A DNA stretch of 64,000 nt, taken from Alphaproteobacteria bacterium. Lineage in GTDB: Bacteria > Pseudomonadota > Alphaproteobacteria > CAAGCB01 > CAG-977. Numbering within the stretch: position 1 is the first letter of the stretch; each line of letters begins with the position of its first letter. This document shows, in pieces, positions 6,910 through 31,450 of this stretch. The translations under genes were made by a program, and so were the position numbers. The notes below the pieces were generated by a model that was not told the origin of the DNA, did no database searches, and saw nothing but the letters and a program-made list of their open reading frames with translations. Where the stretch lies: assembly GCA_017616015.1 (NCBI GenBank), contig JAFZYY010000015.1:23787-87786 (forward strand). The letters are read 5' to 3'.

Positions 6910-7600
6910 AAAAGTGACCCCCGCGTAAAACGCGGGGTTCTTTCTTGACGGGCATAGCCCTCATGCTACTGGCTACGCCTAAACGGCGTTTTGTTTGGTC
7001 TGGTGCGAGCAATTTGTTACTTACTACCCGTAAACGGGTCTGATATGTCCAGCGTCAGCTGATCTGATGCGGCGTCTTCTTCCAGTTGATGTTGGATATA
7101 TTCGGTTATCTTCTTTGTATTTTTCCCGACCGTATCCACATAATATCCTTTGCACCAGAATTCTCTGCTCCGGTATTTGTATCTGATATTACTCCATTGT
7201 TCATAAATCAGCAGACTGCTTTTTCCTTTCAGAAATCCCATAAATCCGGCCACACTTATCTTCGGTGGTATTTCGACCAACATGTGTATATGATCAGGAC
7301 ACGCTTCCCCTTCCAGAACATTTACTCCTTTCCATTTACATAATTTCCTTAGCATTTGGCCTATTTCGTATCGTTTCTCCCCGTAAAACACTTTGCGGCG
7401 ATACTTTGGGGCAAATACCACGTGATATTTACAATTCCATGTTGAATGTGATAGCGTATGCATATCATTCATATTGATTACTCCTTTGACTGCAATGCTC
7501 GTCGGTTCACCAGACCTCCTGCATTGTACCAAAGGAGTTTTTTTCTGCGCATAGCTATAAGCTTTTCTGAACCACGCGCCTAGCGCGTGGTTTTCGGGTT
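6910..7600 (-). mobile_element. IS200/IS605-family element (IS200 type, tnpA only); ends approximate
   Basis: Y1 transposase flanked by subterminal hairpins CCCCGCGT-AAA-ACGCGGGG (6919-6937) and AACCACGCGC-CTA-GCGCGTGGTT (7570-7592). An RBS-sequestering inverted repeat lies at 7480-7538. Confidence 0.88.
7017..7472 (-). CDS. tnpA: IS200-family Y1 (HUH) transposase
   Basis: HSTWNCKYHVVFAPKYRR, HUH motif DHIHML, KGKSS, FWCKGYYVDTVG and catalytic Tyr in YIQHQ; start at MNDM (7472) behind AAGGAG. Confidence 0.96.
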   Translation of the reverse strand: MNDMHTLSHSTWNCKYHVVFAPKYRRKVFYGEKRYEIGQMLRKLCKWKGVNVLEGEACPDHIHMLVEIPPKISVAGFMGFLKGKSSLLIYEQWSNIRYKYRSREFWCKGYYVDTVGKNTKKITEYIQHQLEEDAASDQLTLDISDPFTGSK

Positions 7601-7608
7601 ACAAAAAA

Positions 7609-8586
7609 TCAGGTCACTTCCGTCACTGCGCGGATATTGCCTTGACGGTTAATTTGAACGACACGCAGTTTATCATGCATTTCCGCTATTGTTTTCTCAC
7701 GATCGATTGTCGGATAACAGTGCAGAATACGGTCGGTAAACGCCTTATACGCCGCTTCGGAATTTTCCGCGTGAATTGTCGCAAAGCAGTTATCGTGCCC
7801 GGATCCCATCAATTCCCATAAAGCGCCCGCGTTCGCCGTTGAAATTTCACCGCCGATAATCGCGTCCGGCGTAAAGCGCACGACCAGGTCGATCAGCTTC
7901 GGATACGTCATCGTATTCGTTTGTTCGGTACGCGATAACACCAAATGAACGTGATTGGGGTGAGGCACGATCAATTCTCGGGTATCTTCAATCGTAATCA
8001 CGCGTTTGTGAGAATCCAAAATCGTCAGCAGATTGTTCAAAAAAGTCGTTTTACCGGTTGCCGTCGCACCGGAAACCAGAATGTGATCGCCGCGCTTAAT
8101 AGACAGAATTAAACGTTCGTAAGGGTCTTCCGGATTTTCGACTTCCTTCAGCTTATTAAGCTTCTGAAGACGTTCCCCTGACTTCAAACCGTAGTCCCCC
8201 AAGCCGAATTTAACATCGTCCGAATGCACACGGACGCACATGGCAATACCGCCGGTCAGGTCTTCGTTATCATACATAACGTTTTTGCCGGCTATTCCGG
8301 TAAAACGGTGATCTCCCGGCAATGTCGCATAAACCGTCGGGGATCCTTGTTCGGGATCGAACGGCAATTCAAAGGTATTGGCAATGATATGCATGATATC
8401 CGTCAGATACGTTCTGGATAAATTCTTATCCTGCTGACAGGCCCACGGATGCGCTCTGCGACCGCGCAGACGCAACCAGATTTCGTCCGGTCTGTTAATG
8501 GAAATTTCTTCAACATTATCCTGTTCGTACCAATACGACAAATAACGCAAAGTTGATTTTAATACCTGAAAAGAATCTGAACTCAT
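7609..8586 (-). CDS. virB11: Type IV secretion ATPase VirB11
   Basis: EISINRP, Walker A SGATATGKTT, Asp box TIEDTREL, Walker B PDAIIGGE and His box GH...TIHA; directly downstream of virB10. Confidence 0.9.
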   Translation of the reverse strand: MSSDSFQVLKSTLRYLSYWYEQDNVEEISINRPDEIWLRLRGRRAHPWACQQDKNLSRTYLTDIMHIIANTFELPFDPEQGSPTVYATLPGDHRFTGIAGKNVMYDNEDLTGGIAMCVRVHSDDVKFGLGDYGLKSGERLQKLNKLKEVENPEDPYERLILSIKRGDHILVSGATATGKTTFLNNLLTILDSHKRVITIEDTRELIVPHPNHVHLVLSRTEQTNTMTYPKLIDLVVRFTPDAIIGGEISTANAGALWELMGSGHDNCFATIHAENSEAAYKAFTDRILHCYPTIDREKTIAEMHDKLRVVQINRQGNIRAVTEVT

Positions 8587-8603
8587 ATTCTCATTCCCAA
8601 TCT

Positions 8604-11600
8604 TTAAAATAAATCCGGAACAGGTTCTTCCTGTTGCTGTTGTCTTTCCTGCATCTGTCTTTGCATTTCTTCCTGTTGTTTCCTCAGCTGCTGTTGCTGT
8701 TGTTGCCGCTGCCGATCCTCATCGGTTTCAACCAAGACAGATCTCTTTGGCTGTTGCTGTCCTCCGTAAGTATTATAGTACATTTGTTGTTGCTGTTGCA
8801 TATTAGCCGGGCTGTTCGGATTATTCGGATCGCCCTGAGCGCCCGGATCCTCCGGTTGGTTCGGATAACCGCCGCCGCTTTCGCTTGAAGGAATATTAGG
8901 ATCTTCGTCAGGTACCAGAACGCCGCTGCCTTTATTTTTGACGCTATTGCCTTCTTCATCTTCAACTTCGCTACGCAGCCATAAGTCCTGTTTGGCGAAA
9001 ACTGTGATGCGCGTTCCGGCCGGAACGAATAAACGCGTTTGAATTTTAGACGTTTCTCCCATAATATCATCAAAAATCAGCTGCATTGTCTGACCAAACT
9101 TCGTACGCGCATCTTTTGCCGCCTCCTGCCGACCGGACAAAGCGATTTCGCCGGCCTCACCTACGGTAGGTTTATCGGGCGAAGCCATCATCCACAAAAG
9201 CGCAGAAGTAATGGTAGACTGCAATAATGGCAAACCGTATTTTTTAACCAGCTGTCTGTCCATATAAGCGCCAAGCCCGCCGCGGCCGGAAGCATCGCCA
9301 CTGACACTGTCGCCGAAACTGAAAGCCGCACCGTCCGGACGGATTAAACGCGTCCATTTAACCTCCACTTTTGTTGCGGAACCCGGTCCATCAGCAGCAG
9401 ATCCCGACATTTCACCAATCAGACGACTGCCTGCGGGAATAATGATTTTTCGGCCGACTTCCGAGTAAATATTACGTTCAACAATCGCAGAGACAGGAAC
9501 ATCCGACTGTCCCGTATCAATGGATCGCACAATAACCGCAGGAATGGCTTTATCCGCTAAAATCATGTTTTCCATTTTAACCCGATACGAGGAAATATTT
9601 TTGCCGATTCCTAAATCCGTCCAGTTTGAGGCTCTTTTCTGCTTGCGCAACAAATCTTCTTTTTCCGGAATAGCCCCCGATCCCATACCCGGACGTATCT
9701 GTCTGCGATAAGCCATTTGCATACTACGCAATTGTTTAATTTTAACGGGATCATAACGTTCTCCTTTGCCTGTTCCGCCGCCCAGTCCCAGGTTTTTCCC
9801 CTGATAAATATATTTGGAAGGATCGAAAGTACCGAAAACAGATATTTTACTGTCGTTGACCGTTCCCTCTTCTTCCGGATCTTTGACAATATAATCGTTG
9901 ATGGAACCGGTAACGTTTCCGTTCACATCAACAATTGTTCCGTCCGGCAAAACACGGCCGATCACATTACCGTTTTCATCAACAAAAGTGCCGTCAGGCA
10001 ACAATGTTCCTATACGCTTTCCGTCTTTTCCGAAAACAAACCGCCCGCCTTTGGGTTTAGTTGTGCCGGACGACGACGACATTGTCAATTTTCCGCCATG
10101 CCACGTTCCCAAAACATTGCCGTCAGCGTCAATAATTTCTCCGTTGGCATTAATACGGCCGACAACATTGCCGCTCAAATCCACAACCGTACCGTCAGCC
10201 GTGATAACGCCGACAATATTGCCGTTGGCGTCGCGCACAGCTTCGCCTTCAACAGCGCGGCCGATCACGTTTCCGTTCATATCGACAATCGTTCCGTCAG
10301 GCAACACCCGACCGATAATATTGCCGTCTTTGTCACGGACATAACCGTCGTCGCCGATTATACCCAAAAACTTGCCGTCGCGTCCGATAGCCATACGAAC
10401 ATTTTTATCGGCCTGAGCAGGAGCAAAACCTTTAACCTGCCCGATTTTATTGCCGTTCATGTCCACAACGGTTCCGTCAGGAAGCATTTTGCCGATAATA
10501 TTGCCTTTCAAATCGACGACTGTTCCGTCCGGCAGAACACGGCCGATCACATTGCCGTTTTCATCATAAACCAAACGTTCCTGTTCTCCGTCATCATCGG
10601 TTTTTGCCAACAGATTTCCTTTTGAGTCAACAACACCGCCTGTCAGCAAAGCCCGACCGATCACGTTGCCGTTCAAATCAACGACCGTTCCGTTCGGTTG
10701 CATTTTACCGATAATGTTACCGTTTTCATCACGCAGGAAACCATCGGCGTCGACAATTCCCAGGAATTTGCCGTCAGGACTGAAAACGGCGCCTTTGGGA
10801 TAGACTTTTCCGATGACATTTCCCTTTAAGTCAACAACCGTTCCGTCCGGCAAAACCTGACCGATAACATTGCCGTCTTTATCACGGATCAAACCGTCGG
10901 CGCCGACAATACCCAAAGGCTTTCCGTCTGGGCCGTAAACCGTTTTTCCGATCAAACCTTTCGGGAATAACGAACCGTCTTCGTTAATACTGATCAAAGA
11001 AATCGTGCACAGGTGAGCTCCGGCATTGCTCAATGCCTGGCCGGTAGCCAGCAAACGCCCCAAAACCTGTTTCTTTTCATCAATAATCGTACCGTCGAAA
11101 TGGACTGTTCCGACGACTTTATTCTTTATGTTTTTACATTCTTCCCCGACAGGAACGACACGTCCTAAAAATTTCTGATCATCGCTTAAAACGCGCATAG
11201 AGGCAGTAACATAGCCGACTTCCTGTCCCTGATCGTCTTGCACGCGTCCGCGGGGCAGAACAGTTCCTACGATTTTGCCGTCCAAAGAAATGACACGCTG
11301 TCCGGACGGCACCAAAACGCCGATAGTATTGCCGTCAAGCCCTTTTATCTCTTTGTTGTCCGTAATCGTTCCGACGGAACCGCCGCCTTCCGGATTAACG
11401 CCGTAAGATCCGCCCACAACATGAGCAATGATATTTCCTTGCGTATTCACCGCATATTTCATATCGGAAGCGACACCGATAACTTTTTTACGCTTATCCG
11501 TAACCGCGCCGCTTATTGTCAAACACCCCAACACATTGCCCTGACTGTCCAAAGCTTCGCCGTTAGCAACCACCCTTCCGATGATGTTTTTGCCCGGTCC

Positions 11601-14600
11601 TGACACCTGACCTTTAGGAACGATACGTCCCAATCGTTTGCCGTTCTGGTCTCTGACCAATCCTTCCAAATCGACGCAGCCTATTTCTTTTCCTTTGGAA
11701 TCGATCGCTTTTCCTTCGACTGTCATCTGCCCGACTATTCCGCACGAATCGTCTATAATGGATTCTCCGCTTAACGCCAGACCGATTTGAGTGTTTGAAG
11801 AATTAATTAATGAACGGTCGTAATTAAGCCGACCGATATTTTGTCCGGCTTTATCAATGATATGTCCTTGATCATTAATGACACCCAACACCTGACAGCG
11901 CGGACCGACGGGAATGGCGTTGACGATACCTTTTCCGATTACGATATTCTTGTCGTCAGTAATTGTATCGTCGGCCTGAAGATTGCCCAGCAATTTATTG
12001 GATCTCGTTTCTCTGAGCTGCCCTATCGAATTAAGTCTTCCGATAACTTCGTTTTTAAAGTTCAATCCCAAACCGTCTTTAACGGAATAGCCGATCACGC
12101 TACCGTCCAAAGAAACAACCGTACCGTCCGGCAACATTCTGCCGATCGCCCTGCCGTTAAAGTCCACAACCGTACCGTCAGGCAAAATACGGCCGATCAC
12201 TTTGCCGTTTTCATCAAAAACAAGCTGATCGTATTCTCCCGCCATACCGATGACTTTGCCGTTTCTATCCACGACACTGCCGTCCGGCTGAACTTTTCCG
12301 ATTACCTTTCCTTCCAAATCGACAACCGTTCCGTCCGGCAAAACACGACCGATCACTTTGCCGTTTTCGTCATAAACAAGGCGTTCCAGCTGACCGATAT
12401 CCGCTTTGCCGATTGCGTTGCCTTCCAAATCGACAACCGTTCCGTCCGGCAAAACCTTACCGATCACTTTGCCGTCAAAATCGACAACCGTTCCGTCCGG
12501 CATAACACGGCCGATCACTTTGCCGTTTTCGTCATAGACCAAGCGCTCTGCCTGCGCATTGCCCGCTCTGCCGATAATATTACCGTTCGCATCTACAACG
12601 GTTCCGTCCGGCTGCATTTTGCCGATTTCTTTACCGTTAAAATCTACAACCGTCCCGTCTTCCAAAACACGACCAATCGGATTGCCGTTTTCATCGTAAA
12701 CCAAACGTTCCGGCTGTCCCGCTTTTCCGATCACGTTGCCGTTTTCGTCAACGACGGTGCCGTCCGGCTGCACTTTACCGATAGGCTTCCCTTTCAAATC
12801 CACGACGGTGCCGTCCGGCAGAACACGCCCGATCACATTGCCGTTTTCATCATAAACCAAACGCTCCAGCTGTCCGACACCCGCTTTGCCGATAACAGTG
12901 CCGTTCGAATCCACAACGGTGCCGTCAGGCAACACTTTTCCGATCGGATTGCCGTTTAAATCCACGACCGTACCGTCAGGCATAACACGACCGATCACCT
13001 TGCCGTTTTCATCATAAACGAACAAACCTCTTTCCGCCGCGCGGCCGATCACTTTATTGCTTTCTTCAACGACAGAGCCGCCCGCTCTATAGCGCATAGG
13101 CTTTCCGCCCGGGCCTAAAACAGGATTGCCGTCTTTGTCAACAATACTGCCGTCTAAACCGACATAACCGATAATTTTTCCGTCGGGTCCCATAATAGGC
13201 TGTCCGACAGGAATGACTTCCCCTATAATGCGGCCGTCTTTGTCAACAACCTGCCCGTTCAGATCCGCTTTGCCGATCACGCGTCCCGTCGCGTCAACAA
13301 CGGAACCGTCAGGCATAACGACACCTAAAATTTCTCCGTTCGGACCGATCACCTGGCGCATACCGACAAAAATCTTACCGACAACGGTATCCTTCTTATC
13401 CACGATTTCGCCGCTGGGCATTCTCAGATTTCCCAGATAACGTGCAGTTAAATCTATTGCCGTGCCGTCAGGAAGCAGACGACCGATTATCCGATTCGTT
13501 TTTATATCCAGAACATCGGCTTTGCGGGGAATAATCCCCCCGGAAATTGTATCTTTCTCTTTAACAAAGCCGCTGAGCGTAACGGTTCCGATAAAATCCG
13601 TTCCTTTAATATTCAGCGCTTTGGCAATAGAATCGCCGCGAGCGTAAAGTTCCGTTTTATTATTAACGGCAATTCCTTCCGGTAAAGCCGCGCCCAAAAA
13701 CTTTTTACTGCCGTCGACAAACAGAGAATCAGGACGCAAGCACCCTATCTTTTTGCCGGAAGAGTCATATAAAGAGCCGTCTTTATTCGCAACGCCCAAA
13801 AATTCGTCTTTACTGCTGATTGCGCGCGAAGCGAAAGCCACGCGGCCGAGAAAGTCTCCCTTGCTATCAACGAGCGCATCGTTCATTTGAATGTAGGCTT
13901 TACGTTTAAAGTTTTTATCAACAACACGACCGTCAATTAAAATATTTCCGACGGGATTGCATGCCTCTTTTAACGCTAAACCTTTATACGGAGCCACACG
14001 GGCAATCGTTTGTCCGCTCAGATCGACGATGCTACTGTCCGGCATAACACGGCCGTGTGTTTCCCCTTTTGCATTCGAAATCGTGCCGTCCGGCATAACC
14101 CAACCGACCGTGCGTCCGTCACGATCCAAAACGCCGCCGTAAGGCATTTCCATACCTACAACTTCGTTTTTAGAATCAAACGCCAGACCGCTGGGGTCCA
14201 TACAGCCCAGTATATTTCCGTTTTTGTCCTGTACTTTCCCGGATACGTCCATAATACCGGCAAGGCGTCCCTGATGATTCAATACGACGGACGAATCCAT
14301 AATCCGTCCCAAAACTACCTTTTTATCATCTAAAATTTCGCCGTTTGCCGTCAAATCACCGACAAAATCGCCCTTTGTCGTAAAGACATGCCCTTCAACG
14401 TTTGCATATCCCAGAGTAACGCAACCCGGAGCAATTCCCACGTCCTGTTTTGCCAAAGCACCTTCTATATTTCCGGCTTTGGATAAAAACGTCTTATCCG
14501 GTAAAATACGTCCTTTTATCTGCCCGTCACCGACAACCGAACCGTCCGGCATCACATGACCGATGACTCCGCCTTGATTGCCGATAACTGTTCCTTTGGG

Positions 14601-16148
14601 CAAGACAGCGGCTACGATTTCTTCGTCATCATTAATAACCGTTCCGTATGGTGTCAGACACCCTAAAGGCTCGCCTTTAAACGATACCGGTTTACCGTCC
14701 GTGTCAACTTTACCGACGATTTTGCCTTTCCAGTCGATTAACGCGCCTTCTTCAACATAACCGGCAATAGGATTTCCACCGAGATCGACAACGATATTCG
14801 AAGCCGTCAAACGCCCGACCTGACGGTTACTTGACATCACGGAACCGTCCGTACTGACTCTTCCGACTAATTTGCAGCCGGATCCGATAGCCAAACCTTC
14901 TTTAATAGCGCGGCCGATAATATTGCCGTCTTTATCCACAACCAAACCGTTGGGCAAAACACGACCGATAACATTGCCGTCCGCATCAACCACAGAACCG
15001 TCCGGCATCACAATACCCAACGGCTTGCCTGAAGAGTCCACAACCGTTCCCTGGCGAGCTACGGTACCGATGATATTACCGTCCGCATCAACGATCGTAC
15101 CGTCCGGATTAACAAAGCCGATAACATTGCCGTTTTCATCAACAACTCTGCCGTCCGGCAAAATCCGGCCGATAACGTTGCCGTTTTTATCATAAGCCAA
15201 ACCTGTCGTAATGGCCGCGCCGATCACATTATTGTTAAGATCGACTATTGTGCCGTCCGGCAAAGCATAGCCGATCAAACGGCCGTCTTTATCAACCACG
15301 CGTCCGTCGGGCAAAATTGTTCCCAGGATTTCGCCGTTTGGTCCGATAGCCAGCCTTTGCCCTTCCACAACGCCGATCACATATCCCTGATCATCAACGA
15401 CCGTGCCGTCTTCGCGCAAAGTCCCTATTCTTTTGCCGTCCAATCCGTAAACGACGCCGTTTTCGTCGGCATAACCGATCGGTTTGCCGTCAGGGCCTAA
15501 AATAACGCGGCCTTTTTTACGCAACTGATCAATCATTGATCCGCCGCCGCCACCCGGCGCTTCATCGCAAACGCCGCACAGGCTGGTATCAATAGCCATT
15601 GCGGAAATCGGAACGAGGACTTTCCGACCTATGCCGCCGAAAGTCTCGTCAACCCAACGAATAGCCAGATTGGACTGCATCGTGCGGGCGGTTTTCGGTT
15701 CCCAGCGAACAACAACGTTGCAGGTTACGTCTCCGGACAAGACGACGTCTTTGCGGCATTTGTTTTCCAGAATGAAACCTTCTTCCTGCTTGTTTTCAAA
15801 TTCGACGGACGTAATACCGATTTTACCGGAAGAAGCCGATAACGTTAAAGTACCTTCCGCTTCGGTTCCCAAAACGACCTGATCGAACCGCATGCTTTCG
15901 GGAGAAACAACCAATCTGACCGTCGGCGGTAAATCAAACGTATCCGTTTCACCTTTGGCAATGCCCGTAACACCGTCAGCTGACCCGTTAAATGCAATTT
16001 CGGCGTCTTTCTTTTGTTCTTCTCCTCCGCTCAGCAGTATAATAACCCCCATCAGAAACGCCAGCAGGGCAATAATCCCAACGATCAACAGCGTTCTGTT
16101 GGATTTTTTTAGATATTTGTCTGATGAGCTAAGTAATTCTTCGTTCAT
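8604..16148 (-). CDS. virB10: Giant VirB10/TrbI-family T4SS core protein (~2,514 aa): N-terminal TM, Ig-like domain, long beta-hairpin repeat region, VirB10 domain, Gln-rich tail
   Basis: C-terminal VirB10 motifs IPAVIVRSIDT, IPAGSRLIG, VKWTRLIRPDG, DASGRGG and VPAGTRITVF. The ATG at 16148 overlaps the virB9 stop (ATGA). It sits between virB9 and virB11. Confidence 0.88.
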   Translation of the reverse strand: MNEELLSSSDKYLKKSNRTLLIVGIIALLAFLMGVIILLSGGEEQKKDAEIAFNGSADGVTGIAKGETDTFDLPPTVRLVVSPESMRFDQVVLGTEAEGTLTLSASSGKIGITSVEFENKQEEGFILENKCRKDVVLSGDVTCNVVVRWEPKTARTMQSNLAIRWVDETFGGIGRKVLVPISAMAIDTSLCGVCDEAPGGGGGSMIDQLRKKGRVILGPDGKPIGYADENGVVYGLDGKRIGTLREDGTVVDDQGYVIGVVEGQRLAIGPNGEILGTILPDGRVVDKDGRLIGYALPDGTIVDLNNNVIGAAITTGLAYDKNGNVIGRILPDGRVVDENGNVIGFVNPDGTIVDADGNIIGTVARQGTVVDSSGKPLGIVMPDGSVVDADGNVIGRVLPNGLVVDKDGNIIGRAIKEGLAIGSGCKLVGRVSTDGSVMSSNRQVGRLTASNIVVDLGGNPIAGYVEEGALIDWKGKIVGKVDTDGKPVSFKGEPLGCLTPYGTVINDDEEIVAAVLPKGTVIGNQGGVIGHVMPDGSVVGDGQIKGRILPDKTFLSKAGNIEGALAKQDVGIAPGCVTLGYANVEGHVFTTKGDFVGDLTANGEILDDKKVVLGRIMDSSVVLNHQGRLAGIMDVSGKVQDKNGNILGCMDPSGLAFDSKNEVVGMEMPYGGVLDRDGRTVGWVMPDGTISNAKGETHGRVMPDSSIVDLSGQTIARVAPYKGLALKEACNPVGNILIDGRVVDKNFKRKAYIQMNDALVDSKGDFLGRVAFASRAISSKDEFLGVANKDGSLYDSSGKKIGCLRPDSLFVDGSKKFLGAALPEGIAVNNKTELYARGDSIAKALNIKGTDFIGTVTLSGFVKEKDTISGGIIPRKADVLDIKTNRIIGRLLPDGTAIDLTARYLGNLRMPSGEIVDKKDTVVGKIFVGMRQVIGPNGEILGVVMPDGSVVDATGRVIGKADLNGQVVDKDGRIIGEVIPVGQPIMGPDGKIIGYVGLDGSIVDKDGNPVLGPGGKPMRYRAGGSVVEESNKVIGRAAERGLFVYDENGKVIGRVMPDGTVVDLNGNPIGKVLPDGTVVDSNGTVIGKAGVGQLERLVYDENGNVIGRVLPDGTVVDLKGKPIGKVQPDGTVVDENGNVIGKAGQPERLVYDENGNPIGRVLEDGTVVDFNGKEIGKMQPDGTVVDANGNIIGRAGNAQAERLVYDENGKVIGRVMPDGTVVDFDGKVIGKVLPDGTVVDLEGNAIGKADIGQLERLVYDENGKVIGRVLPDGTVVDLEGKVIGKVQPDGSVVDRNGKVIGMAGEYDQLVFDENGKVIGRILPDGTVVDFNGRAIGRMLPDGTVVSLDGSVIGYSVKDGLGLNFKNEVIGRLNSIGQLRETRSNKLLGNLQADDTITDDKNIVIGKGIVNAIPVGPRCQVLGVINDQGHIIDKAGQNIGRLNYDRSLINSSNTQIGLALSGESIIDDSCGIVGQMTVEGKAIDSKGKEIGCVDLEGLVRDQNGKRLGRIVPKGQVSGPGKNIIGRVVANGEALDSQGNVLGCLTISGAVTDKRKKVIGVASDMKYAVNTQGNIIAHVVGGSYGVNPEGGGSVGTITDNKEIKGLDGNTIGVLVPSGQRVISLDGKIVGTVLPRGRVQDDQGQEVGYVTASMRVLSDDQKFLGRVVPVGEECKNIKNKVVGTVHFDGTIIDEKKQVLGRLLATGQALSNAGAHLCTISLISINEDGSLFPKGLIGKTVYGPDGKPLGIVGADGLIRDKDGNVIGQVLPDGTVVDLKGNVIGKVYPKGAVFSPDGKFLGIVDADGFLRDENGNIIGKMQPNGTVVDLNGNVIGRALLTGGVVDSKGNLLAKTDDDGEQERLVYDENGNVIGRVLPDGTVVDLKGNIIGKMLPDGTVVDMNGNKIGQVKGFAPAQADKNVRMAIGRDGKFLGIIGDDGYVRDKDGNIIGRVLPDGTIVDMNGNVIGRAVEGEAVRDANGNIVGVITADGTVVDLSGNVVGRINANGEIIDADGNVLGTWHGGKLTMSSSSGTTKPKGGRFVFGKDGKRIGTLLPDGTFVDENGNVIGRVLPDGTIVDVNGNVTGSINDYIVKDPEEEGTVNDSKISVFGTFDPSKYIYQGKNLGLGGGTGKGERYDPVKIKQLRSMQMAYRRQIRPGMGSGAIPEKEDLLRKQKRASNWTDLGIGKNISSYRVKMENMILADKAIPAVIVRSIDTGQSDVPVSAIVERNIYSEVGRKIIIPAGSRLIGEMSGSAADGPGSATKVEVKWTRLIRPDGAAFSFGDSVSGDASGRGGLGAYMDRQLVKKYGLPLLQSTITSALLWMMASPDKPTVGEAGEIALSGRQEAAKDARTKFGQTMQLIFDDIMGETSKIQTRLFVPAGTRITVFAKQDLWLRSEVEDEEGNSVKNKGSGVLVPDEDPNIPSSESGGGYPNQPEDPGAQGDPNNPNSPANMQQQQQMYYNTYGGQQQPKRSVLVETDEDRQRQQQQQQLRKQQEEMQRQMQERQQQQEEPVPDLF
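12085..13030 (-). repeat. Six tandem 52-54-codon repeats inside virB10 (ERLVYDENGxVIGRVxPDGTVVD...), each built from three ~17-aa subrepeats; another copy at ~10430-10580
   Basis: Visible in both protein and DNA (recurring ccgttttc[a/g]tc[a/g]taaac and accgttccgtccggc). Degenerate versions extend from ~9900 to ~15500. Confidence 0.9.
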
Positions 16149-17659
16149 TGCGTCCGCACAACCATACACGTCACCCCACGGCGACCTAATTGATTACATA
16201 ATTTATCCCCTGCTTCGATACTATCGACAGGCCCGATGCGCAAACGGAACATATCTTTAGCTTCACCTTCAGCAACGGTATCTATCGAATAGTACGGCTC
16301 GAAATTCCCAAGCAAATCCTTGTTTTTCCGGGCAATACCGTCCCATTTTTTCTCTAATGCCGAAATATCGCTGTCCGTGCCGAGCTCTATTGCAAAACCG
16401 CCTTCCGAAGAATTGCGATAAGAGCGAATATAGCTTTGACTCCTCGGTTGTTGCATAGAAAACTGCATGATTTGATTAGCGCTTAAGGTTCCGTTTGCCC
16501 CCATAGGCATCATCGTCATGCCGTTGTTCGGCATATTCCCCTGTGCCGTAGCGGAAACATTCCCATTATAACCGCCCGTCGTAATCATCGGACCGGGAGA
16601 CCATTTCGGCTGAACGGAAGCTTCGTATTCTACAAACTCCGTTCCGAAAGCGGGATCTTTTCTGATTTTCAGACACAGCAAACGCTTGCCGTTGCGCAAC
16701 ACCAAATCACCGATGCCTTCAACAACCATCAGTCGTCCGTTCGGTCCCCGCGTTCTGAAACCGACAGGAACTTCCGAGCCCTGAGAAAGCAAATTGACAA
16801 TCGGACGTTCCATCATCGTCAGCGCCTTCGGTCCGAAATCAATATACGTAAATATTTCATCACGCCACACACGTTCGGGAGCGATTTCCATATCCGCAGG
16901 ATTAGGAACGAAAACATCAATGTCAAACCGAAGTTTTTCGGGATCCACTTCCATATCGACCAACCAATCTTCCGTCGGATTCTTGGTTGTTTTTTTACCC
17001 GAGCCGGCAGAGCCGCCTTTTCCGCTAAAACCGCCGCCGAAACCGCCGCCTGAGGAAACCGTGCCCGAAGACGCCGGCGTCAGTCCGGAATCGTCGGGAA
17101 CGAATTTTGCGTCATTAACAAGAATATCCACGACGGAGTTTGTGATTCTGTCCGTATTGAACGTTTCGCTTCTGAGATAGAAAACATATCTGTTTCCGGA
17201 ACGACCGAAAACAATCATATTGGTGTCCATGCCGACCAAATCAACGGAAGCCGCAAAGATCATCAATGCGTTTGAAGCCACTTTCTGCGCGCCGAAAGCG
17301 CTTTCGTTGCCGATAAAAACGTTTTCAATCAATTCCCATGACGGAAAATTAACCAACGTGTGCATGCCTTCACGGATACGCAACGGCAAAACCAAATCCG
17401 GCGTCCAGTAATATCTGGAATATCCCGGTTTGGATTGACCTTCGCCCAAATGCTCCATCGGCTTGTTCCAGGCTTTTTGCTGCATGCCTACAGACCAAAA
17501 CGGCATATCTATTTCCGAATATTGCCCGTTTGATTGTTCAATCGCCGCGTCCATGGATTCTCTGGCAGCCGTTTGTTGTTGCGCCGAAACGGATTGAGAC
17601 ATCAGGCAACAAAAAACGGAAACAACTGTAAAAAGGCGGATTTTCAAATATCTTTTCAC
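16145..17659 (-). CDS. virB9: VirB9/TrbG-family T4SS outer-membrane core protein with a C-terminal SPOR-like domain
   Basis: Signal peptide. VirB9-like segments DTNMIVFGRSGNRYVFYL, IAPERVWRDEIFTYIDF and LVLRNGKRLLC. The C-terminus FAIELG...FRLRIGPVDSIEAGDKLCNQLGRRGVTCMVV is typical of alphaproteobacterial SPOR domains. Confidence 0.85.
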   Translation of the reverse strand: MKRYLKIRLFTVVSVFCCLMSQSVSAQQQTAARESMDAAIEQSNGQYSEIDMPFWSVGMQQKAWNKPMEHLGEGQSKPGYSRYYWTPDLVLPLRIREGMHTLVNFPSWELIENVFIGNESAFGAQKVASNALMIFAASVDLVGMDTNMIVFGRSGNRYVFYLRSETFNTDRITNSVVDILVNDAKFVPDDSGLTPASSGTVSSGGGFGGGFSGKGGSAGSGKKTTKNPTEDWLVDMEVDPEKLRFDIDVFVPNPADMEIAPERVWRDEIFTYIDFGPKALTMMERPIVNLLSQGSEVPVGFRTRGPNGRLMVVEGIGDLVLRNGKRLLCLKIRKDPAFGTEFVEYEASVQPKWSPGPMITTGGYNGNVSATAQGNMPNNGMTMMPMGANGTLSANQIMQFSMQQPRSQSYIRSYRNSSEGGFAIELGTDSDISALEKKWDGIARKNKDLLGNFEPYYSIDTVAEGEAKDMFRLRIGPVDSIEAGDKLCNQLGRRGVTCMVVRTQ

Positions 17660-17671
17660 GGGACACCTTCT

Positions 17672-18457
17672 TTATTCATTAGCACTTTCTATCGCATACC
17701 TGTCAACGGCAAAACCGAGCGGATTTTTCAATCGATCGACATATTTAACCTCACGCTGATCCTGCGTAAAGTATTTTACCGACAAACGAATACGCCAACG
17801 GGAAACGACGGGTTCTTCAGCTTCCGGCAACATATCGCGCGTTATAATATAAACCAACCATGTATTTTGGTTTCGGACAACGGATTCAATACGAACTTCA
17901 CGCGTTAGACCTTCCAGTTTGATTCTGGACAGCCAGTCTTTAACCGTCTTATTAAACTGATTATAAACCTGGGGAGATGACATCCAGCGCAAAGGACCGT
18001 CCGTTCCCCAACGGTAAGACATTTCATCAATATCCGAAATCATTGTATTGCGCAACAGAACATATTGGCGGATCATCGCTTCGGAAATAATGTCTTCCGC
18101 CGCCATATCCTTTGCCAAAGGCTGTATTTTAACCACCTGTTCGTCACGGTTCTGGAATGTCAGCAAAAACGGTTCCGCGCGCTTTAACGGCATTAAATGC
18201 AAGATAGCCAGAAGTAAAACCAAATTAACGCAAAGCGCAACGGCAGACACGATTGCAAACGCGCGCGCGGTCCACAGATAACGGCGTTCTCTGAGAGCGT
18301 CTACGGAAACTTCTTCCCGGCTGGAAGAACTTTGCCGCGGTGCCGCGGGCTTTTTTACACTGCTTTCGACTGCCGCGGCATTGCTTTTTGCCGGAACGGC
18401 TTTATTTTCCGCGTTCTTAACCGTAAGCTGCTGTTTTGATCTGGTTGGCTTTGGCAT
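17672..18457 (-). CDS. virB8: VirB8-family T4SS inner-membrane protein (second copy)
   Basis: One TM followed by LMPLKRAEPFLL, YVLLRN, MSSPQVYNQF and the C-terminal NPLGFAVDRY signature. Confidence 0.88.
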   Translation of the reverse strand: MPKPTRSKQQLTVKNAENKAVPAKSNAAAVESSVKKPAAPRQSSSSREEVSVDALRERRYLWTARAFAIVSAVALCVNLVLLLAILHLMPLKRAEPFLLTFQNRDEQVVKIQPLAKDMAAEDIISEAMIRQYVLLRNTMISDIDEMSYRWGTDGPLRWMSSPQVYNQFNKTVKDWLSRIKLEGLTREVRIESVVRNQNTWLVYIITRDMLPEAEEPVVSRWRIRLSVKYFTQDQREVKYVDRLKNPLGFAVDRYAIESANE

Positions 18458-18473
18458 ACTTATATTCTTTCAC

Positions 18474-18659
18474 TTATCCGTTAACCGACAGCCAGTCCGG
18501 CAAATCCGACGGGAGTTTCAACAACATGCAAGCACACGGAGAACGCTTCAGTTCCGAAATATCCGGACCGATGCCGACCGGTTCTTTTTCATAAATGGAA
18601 CACGCGCCTAAAACAGCACAGAGTCCAATCATAAAAATCGCTTGTTTCACTCTTTTCAT
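18474..18659 (-). CDS. virB7: Small lipoprotein, putative VirB7
   Basis: Lipobox LGA-C and ELKRSPCAC motif, located between two virB8 genes. GAGGGAG RBS before MKRVKQ (18659); alternative TTG start at 18674. Confidence 0.65.
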   Translation of the reverse strand: MKRVKQAIFMIGLCAVLGACSIYEKEPVGIGPDISELKRSPCACMLLKLPSDLPDWLSVNG

Positions 18660-18674
18660 TTTTTTCTCCCTCAA

Positions 18675-19391
18675 CTACTGTTTCTGTCCCGCCACATAAT
18701 ACTGCGTCACCGTAAATCCCATCGGATTGCGCAGTCGGGACGCCATCACAGCGTTTGACGCATAATACCGGAACTGTATTGTTGCCAGCCAGTGTTCAAT
18801 TTTCGGTTCACTGATATTGCTTTCGACCTTGCGCGTGTCAAAAAAGATCTGCCAACTGTTCCACCCTTCCTTAAAAATCCGTTTAATATCTGTATCAATC
18901 ATAATTTCGGGCGTTCCTTCTCTATCCATATCTCCGTCCGAAAAATACCTTCTGACTTCTTTGTTCACAAAAGCATCGTAGACTTCCCAAGTTGACAGAC
19001 GCTGCACCACGCCGCCGGGTCCCCACATAATCTGCATTTCACGGATATTCGGCAAAAAGTTGTTTCTGGCCGTCAGGTACTGACGAACAAACATTTCCGC
19101 CAGAATATCCATTGCCGGCATATCCGGGTGGAGCGGTTCAAAATAAGCCAGATTATCCGAAAATGTCGGAGCCGTCACCAAAACGGAAGAAACGTCCGCC
19201 TCTTTGGCGATATGAATCAAAGAAAGAGACAAAACGGAACAGGAAAGCACCAAAATAAAACACAGAACGTTGAAAAAACGCGACAGAAACATAAAAATGG
19301 CCAAACGCCCGCCTGTCGCCCGAGGCCTTTCAGAACCGGCGGTTTTATTGGTTTCCTGGCGAACAGACGCCTTTGACACACTTTTTTCCAT
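18675..19391 (-). CDS. virB8: VirB8-family protein (first, more divergent copy)
   Basis: One TM, FVRQYLTARN, LSTWEVYDAF and C-terminal NPMGFTVTQY; paralogous to 17672-18457. Confidence 0.8.
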   Translation of the reverse strand: MEKSVSKASVRQETNKTAGSERPRATGGRLAIFMFLSRFFNVLCFILVLSCSVLSLSLIHIAKEADVSSVLVTAPTFSDNLAYFEPLHPDMPAMDILAEMFVRQYLTARNNFLPNIREMQIMWGPGGVVQRLSTWEVYDAFVNKEVRRYFSDGDMDREGTPEIMIDTDIKRIFKEGWNSWQIFFDTRKVESNISEPKIEHWLATIQFRYYASNAVMASRLRNPMGFTVTQYYVAGQKQ

Positions 19392-26293: not shown

Positions 26294-28129
26294 TTAGTTC
26301 GGATATAACGGCGGAACGGGAATTTTTTCATCTTCAGCGTTCTTTTTTTCGTCAGGTCGGGCAAATTTAAATGCCAGCCATAAATCTTCTCCGTTCCATT
26401 CGTCCGGTTTGACCGCATACAACGCGCGGTTTAAACTGTCGGTTTCCTCTTTTAACGCCTCGCTGTTCAGCCGAGATGCCAATTCGGAAAGAGTTAAAGG
26501 AGAATTATCCGGCCAATGAATGCGCCCCCAATCCAGCAACGCCTGTTTTGCTCCTTCCGCCGATCCGGAGCGGCAAGCTTCTTTAAGCCGCTGAACCGCA
26601 GCAGAATCGTTTTTTTTCTTTTGTTCCGACAAAGAAACGGCGTCTTTTTTCTTAAGCATCAGGAAATAGAACAAAAGCCACAAACTCAGAACTACCGTCC
26701 CGCCGGCCACGATACCGGCAGCAAACAAAATAAAAGGCGAGTGATCGGCATGTTTTTTCCAAAAAGCCTGCGCAGCCTGCTGTTCCGCTGTATTTTCCGG
26801 CGGTTCGGAAAAAGCTTTGGCAAATTCCGATTCTTTTTTCACCGGCTCCTGTTGATCCTGTGAGGGTATCACAGTCGTTTGAACAGACGGCGGCTCAGCA
26901 ATAGAAGATTCCGGCGTATCATCTCCCGTCACGGTAATCGTGCGCGATGGCAAAACGGCTTTTTTCATTTTTCCCGTTTTGACGTCAAACCACGATATTT
27001 CTAACGGCGGTAAATCGATATTTCCCGCAACGGTGGGCATGAAAACTATCTGGCGCGTTTTCACCCCGACAATTCCTTCGTCGTCAAACAGGTTTTTGGA
27101 ATCCGTCTTTCCGGGATATTGCTTATACTTTTCGCCGTTTGCAAAAACCAAATCGGGAATCTGAGAATCCTGCACGCCGGAAGCCATCACGGTCACTGTT
27201 CTGGTCAAAGCTTCCCCCAACGCGATCGTTTGTTTCGGCGGCGTTAAATCTTCCGACACGGCGACATCGGTTGCCGGCAGCCAATAATTTCCCGCAACGG
27301 AAGCAGCCGGACGCACATTCAAAACAATGGGCTCCGATTGAACGACAATGTTTTTTTGTCCGAAAAAGCCCGAAAAAATACCGGTTCCGCCCATACCGAA
27401 AAGATCTTCTATTTCCTGCATTTTCGTATCGGGATCGCTGACGGATCCTCTGAACTGAGCCGGAGAAAGCTCCAACTTACCGCTTTTCTGAGCGAACAGC
27501 AGAAATTGATATTCCAATACATCATACGTTCTGGCGTGAATTTTTTCCCTGAATCGATTAACGTCCCCCCACTGTTCGACCGTGACGCCGTCTGCTTTGG
27601 GCGGAAGAACCGTTCCGTCCAAAAGAGGCGTTTGAACAAAAGAATACAAGCGCACCGTCAACGGAATTTGCTGACCGACGTACGGGTCTTTGTTTTCCAA
27701 CGTATAACGAACGAATACGTTCGGCTGTGCCGTCTGAGCTTTCTGACGGGCGACAGGATCATCGGGCAAAGCCTGACCGCCGGCAATAACCGTTAAGGTA
27801 ATCGGAGCCGTTTTTTCTTTTCCGGCCTGAATGGAAGGCAAAATAACTTTGCCCGTTTTTTTAGGAACCAATGTTAAAATGTTTTCGTTAAACGTTTGCG
27901 TTTTACCGTTAACATAGCTTGATTTGTAGCTTTTACGCTCCATTGTGATCAGAAAATCTTTGTTTAAAACGGAAATGTCGGGTTTCGCGCCGTTTCCGTC
28001 CTGACGCAAATAAAGCTGAAAGCTTTCACCTTCGGGAATAACCGTGCGGCTGACGCTGGCTTCAAAAGCAACGGCGTTGCGGCATAAGGCAAACATGACA
28101 AGAAATAAGAATAGCATTCTGTTTTTCAT
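26294..28129 (-). CDS. batD: BatD-family protein
   Basis: Signal peptide, repeated Ig-like BatD modules (PYVGQQI, WLPA, GEALTRTV, WFDV), a C-terminal TM and a PPLYP end; downstream of the VWA genes. Confidence 0.85.
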   Translation of the reverse strand: MKNRMLFLFLVMFALCRNAVAFEASVSRTVIPEGESFQLYLRQDGNGAKPDISVLNKDFLITMERKSYKSSYVNGKTQTFNENILTLVPKKTGKVILPSIQAGKEKTAPITLTVIAGGQALPDDPVARQKAQTAQPNVFVRYTLENKDPYVGQQIPLTVRLYSFVQTPLLDGTVLPPKADGVTVEQWGDVNRFREKIHARTYDVLEYQFLLFAQKSGKLELSPAQFRGSVSDPDTKMQEIEDLFGMGGTGIFSGFFGQKNIVVQSEPIVLNVRPAASVAGNYWLPATDVAVSEDLTPPKQTIALGEALTRTVTVMASGVQDSQIPDLVFANGEKYKQYPGKTDSKNLFDDEGIVGVKTRQIVFMPTVAGNIDLPPLEISWFDVKTGKMKKAVLPSRTITVTGDDTPESSIAEPPSVQTTVIPSQDQQEPVKKESEFAKAFSEPPENTAEQQAAQAFWKKHADHSPFILFAAGIVAGGTVVLSLWLLFYFLMLKKKDAVSLSEQKKKNDSAAVQRLKEACRSGSAEGAKQALLDWGRIHWPDNSPLTLSELASRLNSEALKEETDSLNRALYAVKPDEWNGEDLWLAFKFARPDEKKNAEDEKIPVPPLYPN

Positions 28130-30971: not shown

Positions 30972-31450
30972 AGATTACGCTCCAACCATTTTTGAACCGA
31001 AGACAGCAAATGCTTTCCGCCTGAAAAATCCTGATCCGTCGGCGGCGGCGCATACGCCTGCATTGCTAAAAGATATTGATCCCGTTCGTTCAAATCGGCC
31101 CCCGTCCGTGTCAAAAACTCAGTCCATTCCGTTCCGTTCAGCTTTGCCGTTTTTTCCCGTCCGAAGCGATACAGCGCGACGCGACGCATCAAAACGGACA
31201 AAGCGCCCGCCAGCGCGGAAGTATCGCCACCCGTCAGAAAAGAACTTCGCGCCTCGTTAAACGCGGCGAAAGCTTCGCGCCGCCGTTTCAAACGCGGACT
31301 GTTATAAATTAAAAATCCCGTAACCGCCGCGCTTAAAACAACATAGAACACTATCCGCCACCCCGCTCCCAAAGGAAATATCCCATTTGGATATAACGGG
31401 CGAACGTATGACAGTAATTCTTCCCGACTGATTTCCGGCGGCAGAAGCAT
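30968..31450 (-). CDS. DUF4381-like Bat-operon membrane protein
   Basis: PLGAGW+TM, LMRRVAL and LNGTEWTEFL; its position upstream of batA is the usual one. Confidence 0.75.
   Translation of the reverse strand: MLLPPEISREELLSYVRPLYPNGIFPLGAGWRIVFYVVLSAAVTGFLIYNSPRLKRRREAFAAFNEARSSFLTGGDTSALAGALSVLMRRVALYRFGREKTAKLNGTEWTEFLTRTGADLNERDQYLLAMQAYAPPPTDQDFSGGKHLLSSVQKWLERNL

Follow-up and report, generated by a model that had tools for sequence, protein, structure and literature searches.

VirB10 is, to our knowledge, the only subunit of type IV secretion systems (T4SS) that spans the envelope from the inner to the outer membrane, and it is thought to relay energy and contact signals across the envelope. 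The canonical VirB10, TrbI and ComB10 proteins are about 400 aa in length and include a short cytoplasmic tail, one transmembrane (TM) helix, a proline-rich extended periplasmic linker from the TM helix to the barrel, and a TrbI barrel with a helical insert. We know of two giant VirB10 proteins described before, CagY and DotG, whose extra length is for the most part structurally unexplained. The repeats of DotG are of the pentapeptide type. In the rvh systems of Rickettsiales, virB4 is duplicated, virB6 has proliferated and virD4 follows virB11.

CagY (Cag7) of Helicobacter pylori, with 1,927 aa, carries a membrane anchor, internal repeats and a C-terminal barrel; its repeats are described as alpha-helical modules, and the regions N-terminal to the barrel as forming a periplasmic ring (PMC9371333). 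DotG/IcmE of the Legionella type IVB system is presented as an enlarged VirB10-family protein with internal repeats, thought to span the envelope (bioRxiv 10.64898/2026.01.14.699567). For Rickettsia typhi, an islet with the order rvhB8-rvhB7-rvhB8-rvhB9-rvhB10-rvhB11 is reported (PMC4676284). The stand-alone beta-flowers (PF21784-PF21786, clan CL0395; Durairaj et al. 2023) are described as small single domains of ~96 residues that include lipoproteins and, according to that account, have no function assigned to them; their hairpins carry a semiconserved [DNEQ]xxG tip motif and form shallow barrels of 4-, 5- or 6-fold symmetry (PMC10584680).

The window, i.e. the whole stretch of 64,000 nucleotides analyzed, includes a single uninterrupted ORF of 2,514 aa at 8604-16148 (minus strand) for a VirB10 that is ~2,100 residues longer than the canonical protein. 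It shares with the canonical members the short cytoplasmic tail, the single TM helix, the TrbI barrel with helical insert and the position between virB9 and virB11. In contrast, an Ig-like domain and beta-hairpins replace the proline-rich linker, and a Gln/Pro-rich tail with a conserved PELF end is added. The genes of the operon and the segments of VirB10 are as follows, in the direction of transcription.

18675..19391, minus strand: second, divergent virB8 paralogue, 26% identical to the first virB8
18474..18674, minus strand: VirB7-like small lipoprotein ORF, 66 aa with lipobox LGAC, called from the sequence with no family match
17672..18457, minus strand: virB8, by profile match
16145..17659, minus strand: virB9 (CagX family) with a C-terminal SPOR domain, by profile match
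8604..16148, minus strand: virB10, 2,514 aa, ATG at 16148-16146 and stop at 8604-8606
16095..16148, minus strand: cytoplasmic N-terminal tail of VirB10, aa 1-18, with the conserved motif LSSSD.YLKKSNR
16029..16094, minus strand: single TM helix, aa 19-40
15579..15917, minus strand: Ig-like domain of ASH/HYDIN/choice-of-anchor-D type, aa ~78-190, with Cys131 and Cys143
15567..15578, minus strand: CxxC motif, C191 and C194, adjoining the Ig-like domain
9894..15536, minus strand: beta-flower hairpins, aa 205-2085, made up of ~110 units of 17 aa and containing 12 Cys
13329..15503, minus strand: fixed-length flower module, aa 216-940
12078..13028, minus strand: variable array 1, aa 1041-1357, six units of 52-54 aa forming three double units of 106-108 aa
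10929..12068, minus strand: fixed-length flower module, aa 1361-1740
9879..10928, minus strand: variable array 2, aa 1741-2090
9564..9893, minus strand: basic linker, aa 2086-2195, pI 9.7, with the conserved motif GERYDP...QLR
8976..9563, minus strand: VirB10/TrbI C-terminal barrel, aa 2196-2391, including a stretch that aligns to the helical antenna of ComB10
8607..8975, minus strand: acidic Gln/Pro-rich tail, aa 2396-2514, ending in conserved PxP(E/D)LF
7609..8586, minus strand: virB11 ATPase, by profile match

The sequence-only reading had assigned to this locus a VirB10 of ~2,514 aa consisting of a TM segment (~16040-16090), an Ig/ASH-like domain with two Cys, dozens of 17-aa repeats of beta-flower or DUF3659 type, a VirB10 domain (~8975-9570) and a Gln/Pro-rich tail. 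The order was recovered in full within one ORF, and each domain was found at or close to the proposed position, whereas two of the counts had to be raised, the Cys from two to four (C131, C143, C191 and C194) and the repeats from dozens to ~110.

The chromosomal operon, with the order virB8-virB7-like-virB8-virB9-virB10-virB11, resembles the rvh systems in its islet order, its duplicated and divergent virB8, the scattering of its islets and the failure to find VirB5. The position of virB10 between virB9 and virB11 was also observed at three other loci (L024, L025 and L037). Unlike the rvh systems, the genome gave one VirB4 and one VirB6 profile match, virD4 is not adjacent but lies on other contigs (which carry virB2/virB4, virB6/virD4 and a second virD4), and an IS200-family transposase gene follows virB11. 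The window VirB10 is almost certainly a subunit of a chromosomal, non-plasmid T4SS whose genes are scattered in islets of rvh-like order. By gene content the system is of type IVA and rvh-like, in contrast to the type IVB system of DotG.

The remaining genes of the window are housekeeping genes. Scanning for promoters and terminators gave no better result than shuffled sequences (24 against 17.6 ± 4.8, and 28 against 19.6 ± 4.9), and neither the Rfam nor the tRNA scan of the window had a hit. A site of the pattern TTTAAA-17-TATAAT (19460-19432), which lies upstream of the virB8 gene that comes first in the operon, is given as a lead only. Among the sequencing runs listed as containing the sequence, no RNA run was present. 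A plasmid origin was also considered and rejected: of the 1,708 matching plasmid records, none spans 80% of the C-terminal 422 aa; the eight plasmid matches listed are 26-38% identical.

The ORF listing extends virB10 to 8604..16169 (minus strand), giving 2,521 aa with a GTG start. All full-length orthologues, however, begin at the Met of MNEELLSSSD.YLKKSNR, and the start was therefore set at the ATG at 16148, which overlaps the virB9 stop codon as ATGA. The motif of the N-terminal tail is kept in all full-length orthologues and recurs in giants that are more distant as well as in P0068, a relative of 579 aa; its basic residues (KYLKKSNR) immediately precede the TM helix. Only within aa 19-40 did 19-residue Kyte-Doolittle windows exceed a hydropathy of 1.6 in the whole protein, and the window VirB10 is predicted to be bitopic, with a short cytoplasmic tail and one inner-membrane TM helix. 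The Ig-like domain of the window itself matches the ASH and choice-of-anchor D models below their cut-offs (PF15780, E 0.006, 17.1 against 27 bits; NCBIfam, E 2.1e-5, 25 against 45 bits), but the homologous domain of a short relative (L097:7296-9017) passes PF22544 with 30.2 against 25.5 bits. This homologous domain aligns to that of the window protein with both Cys included (E 1e-6 and 4e-8). The adjoining CxxC is invariant in 18 of 18 aligned sequences and was also found in the N-terminal half ORF of L096. A homology search with aa 1-215 returned eight proteins.

At the other end of the protein, TrbI (PF03743) matches nt 8976-9563 with 103.8 bits against a cut-off of 35, and ComB10 (2bhv) matches with 5e-18 over residues 23-233 of 246 (211 aligned). 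The sole PDB sequence relatives of the C-terminus are ComB10, CagY, TrwE and Xanthomonas VirB10. Both equivalog models were matched below their cut-offs (T4SS_VirB10 NF038091, 87.1 against 220 bits; T4SS_ComB10 NF038092, 102.4 against 300 bits), and by these scores the protein is a divergent member of the superfamily rather than an equivalog. In the tail (aa 2396-2514), Gln accounts for 22% and Pro for 10% of residues; the P, L and F of its end motif (PxPELF here) are invariant in 16 of 16 sequences. A proline-rich linker between TM helix and barrel was not detected, Pro being outside the six commonest residues in aa 41-78, in the flower region and in aa 2086-2190.

Between the two ends, the 17-aa period stood out in BLOSUM autocorrelation (peak of 0.72 at lag 17 against about -0.7 elsewhere), and 109 anchor motifs in 1,881 aa gave the count of ~110 hairpins. 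Bflower_2 (PF21785) matches 24 stretches with 481.3 bits against a gathering threshold of 38 (3.7e-147), Bflower (PF21784) with 201.8 against 25 bits, and DUF3659 matches too, in agreement with the repeat type proposed by the sequence-only reading. Of the Bflower_2 matches in the genome, 22 of 22 fall within virB10. The [DNEQ]xxG hairpin-tip motif occurs 135 times in aa 205-2085, a likeness to the stand-alone beta-flowers, with which the array also shares the hairpin family by HMM. The difference lies in the arrangement, a chain of ~110 hairpins here forming part of a secretion-system subunit. Super-periods of 51 and 106 aa, corresponding to three and six hairpins, were also detected by autocorrelation. 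The array is acidic (pI 5.1, net charge -34), and a hydropathy scan gave no evidence of an enclosed hydrophobic helix within it. PDB sequence searches with the first flowers and variable array 1 gave weak, non-specific matches (a flagellin hook motif, bactofilin, TRIM NHL, gluconolactonase and Rhs).

In the comparison of orthologues, length variation was confined to two segments. The fixed-length modules measure 724-730 aa (aa 216-940) and 372-380 aa (aa 1361-1740) in 17 of 17 orthologues, and are 50-88% identical across four genera, comparable to the barrel (62-78%), which suggests that the repeats are functional rather than junk. Variable array 1 ranges from 11 to 320 aa among orthologues (15, 108, 212, 230-246 and 320 aa) in steps of ~106 aa, the period with the strongest autocorrelation in this segment, where TRF periods of 162 and 318 nt were also found; variable array 2 ranges from 157 to 499 aa. 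The window VirB10 has 16 Cys, paired at regular spacings of 72-73, 51 and 43 aa, including 425/497, 576/649 and 730/803 in the first fixed module (72-73 aa) and 1418/1469, 1491/1542 and 1671/1714 in the second. Each of the 17 orthologues has 16 or 18 Cys, counted after the residues preceding the conserved Met were trimmed from two rows. One contig, from a run of another study, joins 12828 back to 10543 through a shared stretch of 35 nt, which could be a strain rearrangement; a joint from 10340 to 12736 in two runs was distrusted, its short side being only 21 letters.

The window protein is related to CagY through the barrel (6x6j, profile E 1.5e-9) and to DotG as an enlarged VirB10-family subunit with an internal repeat region, but the repeats differ from those of both. 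Instead of the alpha-helical modules encoded by near-identical, recombining DNA repeats that characterize CagY-type expansion, the array consists of 17-aa beta-hairpins, with DNA copies diverged to 60-89% mutual identity and a length constant within clusters, and no pentapeptide family was found among the matches of the window VirB10 at E <= 0.01. In a tree, all 51 flower-bearing VirB10 domains lie on one side of one branch (SH-aLRT 99). Together these results support the view, put forward in the sequence-only reading, that this VirB10 expanded independently of CagY and DotG.

The survey of VirB10 lengths showed the giant form in 28 of 28 genomes of the order, in a single frame wherever the contig suffices except in G013 (pieces of 1,658 and 261 aa). 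Of 401 genomes sampled evenly across the class, 19, from 10 families, carry it, with lengths of 1,280-2,838 aa, and each of the 21 long database representatives that were scanned matches both Bflower_2 and TrbI. The titles of related records, like the runs containing the sequence, point to human, mouse, horse and ruminant guts as habitats. Since the order TM-Ig-TrbI is present already in the nearest relatives of ordinary size (506-579 aa), the Ig-like domain is ancestral and the hairpin array was inserted once. Comparison shows an ancestor of ~550 aa with TM helix, Ig-like domain and barrel, and one lineage of small-genome, gut-associated Alphaproteobacteria that placed the array after the Ig-like domain, ahead of the barrel, and has retained it since. 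At three loci (L090, L093 and L096) the gene is split into an N-terminal and a C-terminal half. The C-terminal halves have a signal-peptide-like start, with SD-like GGAGG or GAGGAG at the junction, and likewise terminate in ..ALF or ..ELF; the putative products are an inner-membrane-anchored half and a secreted outer-membrane half. BLAST placement of the split point on the window protein was ambiguous, as the repeats match many places. A literature search found no publication describing a beta-flower giant VirB10.

Based on these features, we propose, with a probability of roughly 0.55, that the protein forms a periplasmic, disulfide-stabilized scaffold or collar built from one enlarged subunit. 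From the sequence, 18 residues of each chain are predicted to lie in the cytoplasm and one helix to pass through the inner membrane; all that follows would be in the periplasm, up to the C-terminal barrel, which would meet VirB9 and VirB7 at the outer membrane. Because solved T4SS cores are described as holding 14 or more VirB10 copies (PMC9371333), the array would place ~14 x 1,880 residues (~3 MDa) of disulfide-stapled beta modules around the channel, 14 being the copy number in other systems. The modules may pack laterally between adjacent protomers into a periplasmic collar or cage, giving an "expanded" T4SS from one enlarged subunit rather than from accessory proteins, in which the two fixed-length blocks would serve as a conserved frame and the two arrays, changing by whole modules, would set the size. 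As some relatives make the protein in two separate halves, the arrays would have to associate without a covalent link. Topology, paired Cys and natural split forms plausibly fit such a collar or stalk, which the sequence-only reading had also suggested. More tentatively, the array may act as a self-associating periplasmic "zipper", in which flowers of the outer-membrane core dock on flowers of the inner-membrane anchor, and at least 14 chains together form an adjustable cage or a hydrophobic-cored ring stack spanning the envelope.

The collar has to be weighed against other roles for the same array. The SPOR domain that ends VirB9 here and in several relatives suggests that anchoring to peptidoglycan may contribute to the role of the array or even account for most of it, the modules binding the wall or a membrane leaflet and fixing the machine in the sacculus together with VirB9, with no self-supporting collar. 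We know of no beta-flower for which a ligand has been demonstrated, but the families are placed in the Tubby clan, with lipid-binding members (PMC10584680). SPOR does not track the array, however, since it was not detected at E <= 0.001 in VirB9 of four of the eight other giant loci scanned (L092, L093, L094 and L096) and is present beside a flowerless VirB10 of 833 aa (L102); the acidity of the array also speaks against this tether, which we regard as unlikely. The big changes in length between species would suit a loosely constrained spacer or binding surface as well as a collar. The fold above the level of the hairpin could also differ from discrete beta-flowers, since YD/RHS models match the hairpins (YD_repeat_2x TIGR01643, 1.3e-36 in three stretches; RHS_repeat PF05593, 1.5e-25) and NHL/SGL propeller blades match weakly, with PDB matches to TRIM3 NHL (6.7e-4), gluconolactonase and two Rhs proteins (0.087 and 0.59). 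A YD/RHS-like sheet or shell, or NHL-like propellers, would change both shape and role. In favour of such a fold, the array has hardly any gaps, and outside variable array 1 it shows no clear linkers between domains. Bflower_2 is nevertheless far stronger, Bflower passes too, an Rhs core or toxin domain is missing, and the 51- and 106-aa super-periods together with length steps of ~106 aa are more readily reconciled with closed modules, each of a few hairpins, than with an open spiral, leaving the alternative folds rather improbable.

Exposure at the cell surface, as a variable adhesin or immune decoy of the kind proposed for the CagY repeat region, would agree with the shared order of membrane anchor, repeats and VirB10 domain, with the engagement of host receptors reported for CagY repeats (PMC9371333), with the variable length of two arrays among species, and with the join of 12828 to 10543 if this reflects strain rearrangement. 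Such exposure, however, needs two additional crossings of the outer membrane by an array that lies between inner-membrane anchor and outer-membrane barrel. The array is mostly of fixed length and 50-88% conserved, its length is stable within 90%-identity clusters (2,201 aa in 14 of 15 members listed; 2,265-2,266 aa in 12 of 14 members listed of a second cluster, the other two being fragments), and DNA repeats diverged to this degree are a poor substrate for frequent recombination. The "surface appendage" suggested by the sequence-only reading is for these reasons unlikely, and the adhesin or decoy very unlikely. A further alternative, named by the same reading, is that the long ORF stems from misassembly or consists of two fused genes. 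Short-read metagenome assembly can collapse or chimerize repeats, and a two-gene encoding of the same protein is known among relatives. Contigs from four runs in two studies, however, together cover 8000-17000, and neither base differences nor indels are listed for them, although one of the four runs may itself be the source. The repeat copies are diverged, the longest exact repeat is 34 nt, and no internal hydrophobic or signal segment is present in the window protein. ORFs of 1,280-2,684 aa were found in 31 of the 35 named public loci uninterrupted by a contig end, the orthologue alignment is colinear, and the giant form is universal in the genomes of the order surveyed, so that an artefact or fusion is extremely improbable.

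The collar reading apart, the flower-bearing VirB10 represents a third, independent route to VirB10 gigantism, taken with a fold that received its name as late as 2023 and is not known to have a function, and the giant form is fixed across at least 10 families of small-genome Alphaproteobacteria. The split-gene lineages provide a natural experiment on the need for a covalent link from the inner to the outer membrane. If the zipper is true, secretion machines would gain a new architectural principle and the orphan beta-flower fold its first function, and the two-gene forms would show that VirB10 can work without one covalent chain between the two membranes. The locus suggests that these poorly known, uncultured gut bacteria operate a large chromosomal secretion machine of the effector type.

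The giant virB10 gene occupies a minus-strand frame of 2,521 open codons (8604-16169) in the ORF listing, with GTG as the first codon. Since all full-length orthologues fetched begin with Met followed by NEELLSSSD.YLKKSNR or a near variant, the start was placed at the ATG at 16148, giving 2,514 aa, the length stated by the sequence-only reading, whose coordinates were correct, off by a few tens of bases at most. This ATG overlaps the stop codon of the upstream virB9 (ATGA), and 17 nt separate the virB10 stop from the virB11 start.

Operon of the giant virB10 and the gene behind it (window coordinates)
18675-19391, minus: divergent virB8, first gene of the operon
18474-18674, minus: VirB7-like 66-aa ORF with a lipobox, assigned by position and form only
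17672-18457, minus: virB8
16145-17659, minus: virB9 (CagX family) with a C-terminal SPOR (peptidoglycan-binding) domain
8604-16148, minus: giant virB10
7609-8586, minus: virB11, after virB10
7017-7532, minus: IS200-family (Y1) transposase gene, directly 3' of virB11

In Pfam, the region near the C-terminus matched TrbI/VirB10 at 103.8 bits (cut-off 35), and the middle of the protein matched mostly Bflower_2 (3.7e-147, 24 stretches) as well as Bflower and DUF3659, in agreement with the initial likening of the repeat to beta-flower or DUF3659 units. RHS_repeat also matched, MORN_2 and SGL weakly. The sole hydrophobic stretch is located at aa 19-40, and the tail behind the barrel contains 22% Gln and 10% Pro; the TM, VirB10 domain and Gln/Pro-rich tail first noticed by eye are thus all present, near the positions given. 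Behind this poorly conserved tail stands a conserved terminus, PxP(E/D)LF (8607-8624, minus), with P, L and F unchanged in 16/16 orthologues. A terminal Phe is reminiscent of the C-terminal signature of outer-membrane proteins, and this end could be such a signature or a docking peptide. A CxxC motif right behind the Ig-like domain (15567-15578, minus), invariant in 18/18 aligned sequences, could be redox-active, bind a metal or form a short disulfide.

Autocorrelation of the array (aa 205-2085, substitution matrix) showed a maximum at lag 17 (0.72), followed by lag 34 (0.17) and lag 51 (-0.07), the remaining lags being about -0.7. From 109 loose hairpin-end motifs in 1,881 residues, the array is estimated to hold about 110 hairpins. 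Super-periods were detected in the first block (aa 205-415; 51 aa, three hairpins) and in variable array 1 (aa 1041-1357; 106 aa), consistent with the periods of 162 and 318 nt identified by Tandem Repeats Finder. In the whole 2.09-Mb genome, all 22 Bflower_2 matches lie within virB10. Twelve regularly spaced Cys residues are present in the array, and the total per orthologue is 16 or 18 in 17/17, two rows having been trimmed of residues preceding the conserved Met. Such paired Cys would fit an oxidising periplasmic location.

Cysteine pairs of the array
425/497, 576/649 and 730/803: spacing 72-73 aa
1418/1469 and 1491/1542: spacing 51 aa
1671/1714: further pair

Alignment of 17 full-length orthologues from four genera indicated that the array is conserved under constraint. 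The blocks at aa 216-940 (724-730 aa) and aa 1361-1740 (372-380 aa) are of near-fixed length in 17/17, with 50-88% identity to the window protein per 50-residue bin (barrel, 62-78%). Length variation is limited to array 1 (11-15, 107-108, 212, 230-246 or 320 aa; a step of about 106 aa, or six hairpins) and array 2 (157-499 aa), the window protein carrying the largest array 1 of the 17, and length thus changes module by module. Within 90%-identity clusters length is constant, 2,201 aa in 14/15 listed members of one cluster and 2,265-2,266 aa in 12/14 of another, the remaining two being fragments, whereas within-strain churn has been described for cagY.

Whether the repeat region might be an assembly artefact or a fusion of two genes was raised together with the original reading. 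Breaks of public contigs coincide with short exact repeats, and in a second-study run one low-depth contig joins 12828 back to 10543 via 35 shared letters, a joint that may be a k-mer chimera, a gene conversion or a strain rearrangement. Against an artefact, the DNA repeat copies are only 60-89% identical to one another, the longest exact repeat being 34 nt (10543-10576 = 12829-12862), and contigs from two studies (four public runs, of which one run may be the window's own source) cover 8000-17000, no base difference or indel being listed. One copy of the 34-nt repeat lies in an array 2 unit and the other in unit 2 of array 1; the peptides there are identical for about 26 aa. The strongest argument comes from the orthologue comparison: the giant type was found in 28/28 genomes of the order, in one frame of 2,037-2,684 aa save where a contig end cuts it, with one exception. 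In this genome of the same genus (G013:C14:37170-37758), the frame is broken within the barrel into pieces of 1,658 and 261 aa, possibly a pseudogene or a sequencing error. Among named public records, 35 loci carry titles such as uncultured Alphaproteobacteria or Rhodospirillales with rumen, gut or faeces as the source, one title having an unrelated name; the 31 loci uncut by a contig end have frames of 1,280-2,684 aa. That the long ORF is an artefact is hardly credible.

Three relatives, belonging to three further families, encode the giant VirB10 by two adjacent genes.

Naturally split forms (relatives' loci)
L090:5024-13164: N-half of 1,141 aa, C-half of 1,571 aa
L093:2947-12921: N-half of 1,563 aa, C-half of 1,760 aa
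L096:4242-11306: N-side ORF of 796 aa, beginning within the Ig region; C-half of 1,557 aa, leaving the contig

The inner-membrane-anchored N-half consists of the N-terminal motif, TM, ASH-type Ig domain and flowers, and the C-half opens with a hydrophobic stretch resembling a signal peptide, continues with a conserved mature N-terminus (QEITAI.F.G, consensus from 15 sequences) and then carries flowers and barrel. The genes of a pair occupy different reading frames. In L090 and L093, an SD-like GGAGG or GAGGAG stands ahead of the second start, and the C-half ends with ..ALF or ..ELF. A fourth candidate locus (L095) is fragmentary. These lineages show that separate chains can carry the anchor in the inner membrane and the barrel in the outer membrane; if the machine still couples both membranes, the flower arrays would have to be held together non-covalently.

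Searching the full library with the C-terminal 422 aa gave 4,124 protein matches at E <= 0.001, of which 74 reached E <= 1e-30; the top matches include many proteins of 1,077-2,406 aa. Among the 28 scanned of 150 matches listed, all 21 long ones carried Bflower_2 and TrbI, and all seven of medium length (590-824 aa) TrbI alone. A survey of VirB10 lengths in relatives, also proposed at the outset, covered an even sample of 401 class genomes with a C-terminal profile: giant frames were found in 19 genomes (E <= 1e-75; 10 families; genome size 1.1-2.5 Mb; 1,280-2,838 aa, except for a 669-aa frame cut by a contig start). Frames of 508-833 aa were found in 10 more genomes of six families (E 1e-53 to 4e-32), and the other 372 had nothing reaching E <= 1e-30. 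A quick VirB10-domain tree by maximum likelihood was built from 139 rows (134 of the 150 matches and five orthologues; 16 matches without a complete domain were excluded). All 51 rows with at least eight upstream hairpin motifs lie on the same side of one branch (SH-aLRT 99), so that flower-bearing domains form a single group. This side additionally includes 19 N-terminally truncated fragments and two 'plain' rows, and the opposite side 60 plain and seven unclear rows. Inside the flower side is a four-row group of 625-824 aa, three of which (P0124, P0126, P0132) showed TrbI only in the Pfam scan. Twelve database representatives of 1,407-1,888 aa with a C-half-like N-terminus belong to one 21-row group (SH-aLRT 99). 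Short relatives (L097-L100, 506-579 aa) carry an Ig-like domain between the N-terminal hydrophobic segment and the barrel, above the Pfam cut-off in one (PF22544, 30.2 versus 25.5 bits), which aligns to that of the window protein including both Cys; P0068 (579 aa) shares its N-terminal motif. The simplest history would be a single insertion of the hairpin array into an ancestral TM-Ig-VirB10 protein.

The gene order is the same as in the Rickettsia typhi rvh islet, rvhB8-II / rvhB7, rvhB8-I, rvhB9-II, rvhB10, rvhB11, in the available text of PMC4676284, but there virD4 follows virB11 where the window has the transposase gene. In contrast to rvh, this genome has a single VirB4 match and a single VirB6 match. 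Its remaining T4SS genes are dispersed: virB2 and virB4 on contig C22, virB6 and one virD4 on C12 amid many ORFs without a Pfam match, and a second virD4 on C8. VirB3 was below its cut-off, and VirB5 was not found in the genome search. The second VirD4 lies directly behind a 443-aa pentapeptide-repeat protein (L077:7283-10876), possibly its dedicated substrate or adaptor. The C22 and C12 islets (L075, L076) are ringed by many 200-760-aa ORFs without a Pfam match, candidate T4SS parts or substrates, and a TcpQ-like protein. The VirB9-SPOR fusion occurs also in L024, L025, L037 and L088-L091 and next to a flowerless 833-aa VirB10 (L102); SPOR was not detected in VirB9 of L092-L094 and L096, and no paper in the collection searched combines VirB9 with a SPOR domain. 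Because the rest of the window is a housekeeping set (uvrB, uvrC, recJ, pfk, ispDF, PTS, Fe-only hydrogenase, rubrerythrin), the locus is taken as chromosomal and the organism as apparently anaerobic. Of 1,708 matching records in the plasmid collection, none spans 80% of the C-terminal 422 aa (identity 26-38% in the eight listed). The window also carries three tandem type IVb pilin-like genes (Bundlin/PilS N-terminal families; 52203-54521, plus) and a BatA-D-like operon (DUF4381, two VWA proteins, one with TPR, and BatD; 26294-31450, minus).

VirB10 spans the envelope in at least 14 copies per core complex. For modules of roughly 2.5-3 nm, a single-file strut would be longer than the periplasm, estimated at about 25-30 nm, and the modules therefore probably pack laterally into a collar or cage. 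We consider such a periplasmic scaffold of flower modules, predicted from sequence, slightly favoured (about 0.55). The array would be stapled by disulfides, the two fixed blocks would serve as a frame whose size would depend on the two variable arrays, and with fourteen copies the channel would be surrounded by about 3 MDa of extra protein. The available text of PMC9371333 places the CagY region immediately N-terminal to the barrel in a periplasmic ring, and that of bioRxiv 10.64898/2026.01.14.699567 regards VirB10 and DotG as signal transmitters. That the array is mainly a peptidoglycan or membrane tether is unlikely, a different fold above the hairpin level is somewhat less likely still, and exposure of the repeats on the cell surface appears improbable.

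The name beta-flower dates from 2023, when it was given to a fold of single-domain proteins without known function, according to the accessible part of PMC10584680. Among the papers listed by a search of main texts, in a collection with few subscription journals, none tied beta-flower, Bflower or DUF3659 to VirB10 or T4SS, nor was there a relevant one on secretion systems of the RF32 or CAG-239 lineages. As precomputed Pfam annotations of database proteins already contain the domain combination, it is unreported rather than undetectable. The independent expansion of VirB10 proposed by the sequence-only reading is upheld, with flower-bearing domains on one side of the tree: after CagY and DotG, the window VirB10 is a third giant VirB10, independent of the earlier ones.
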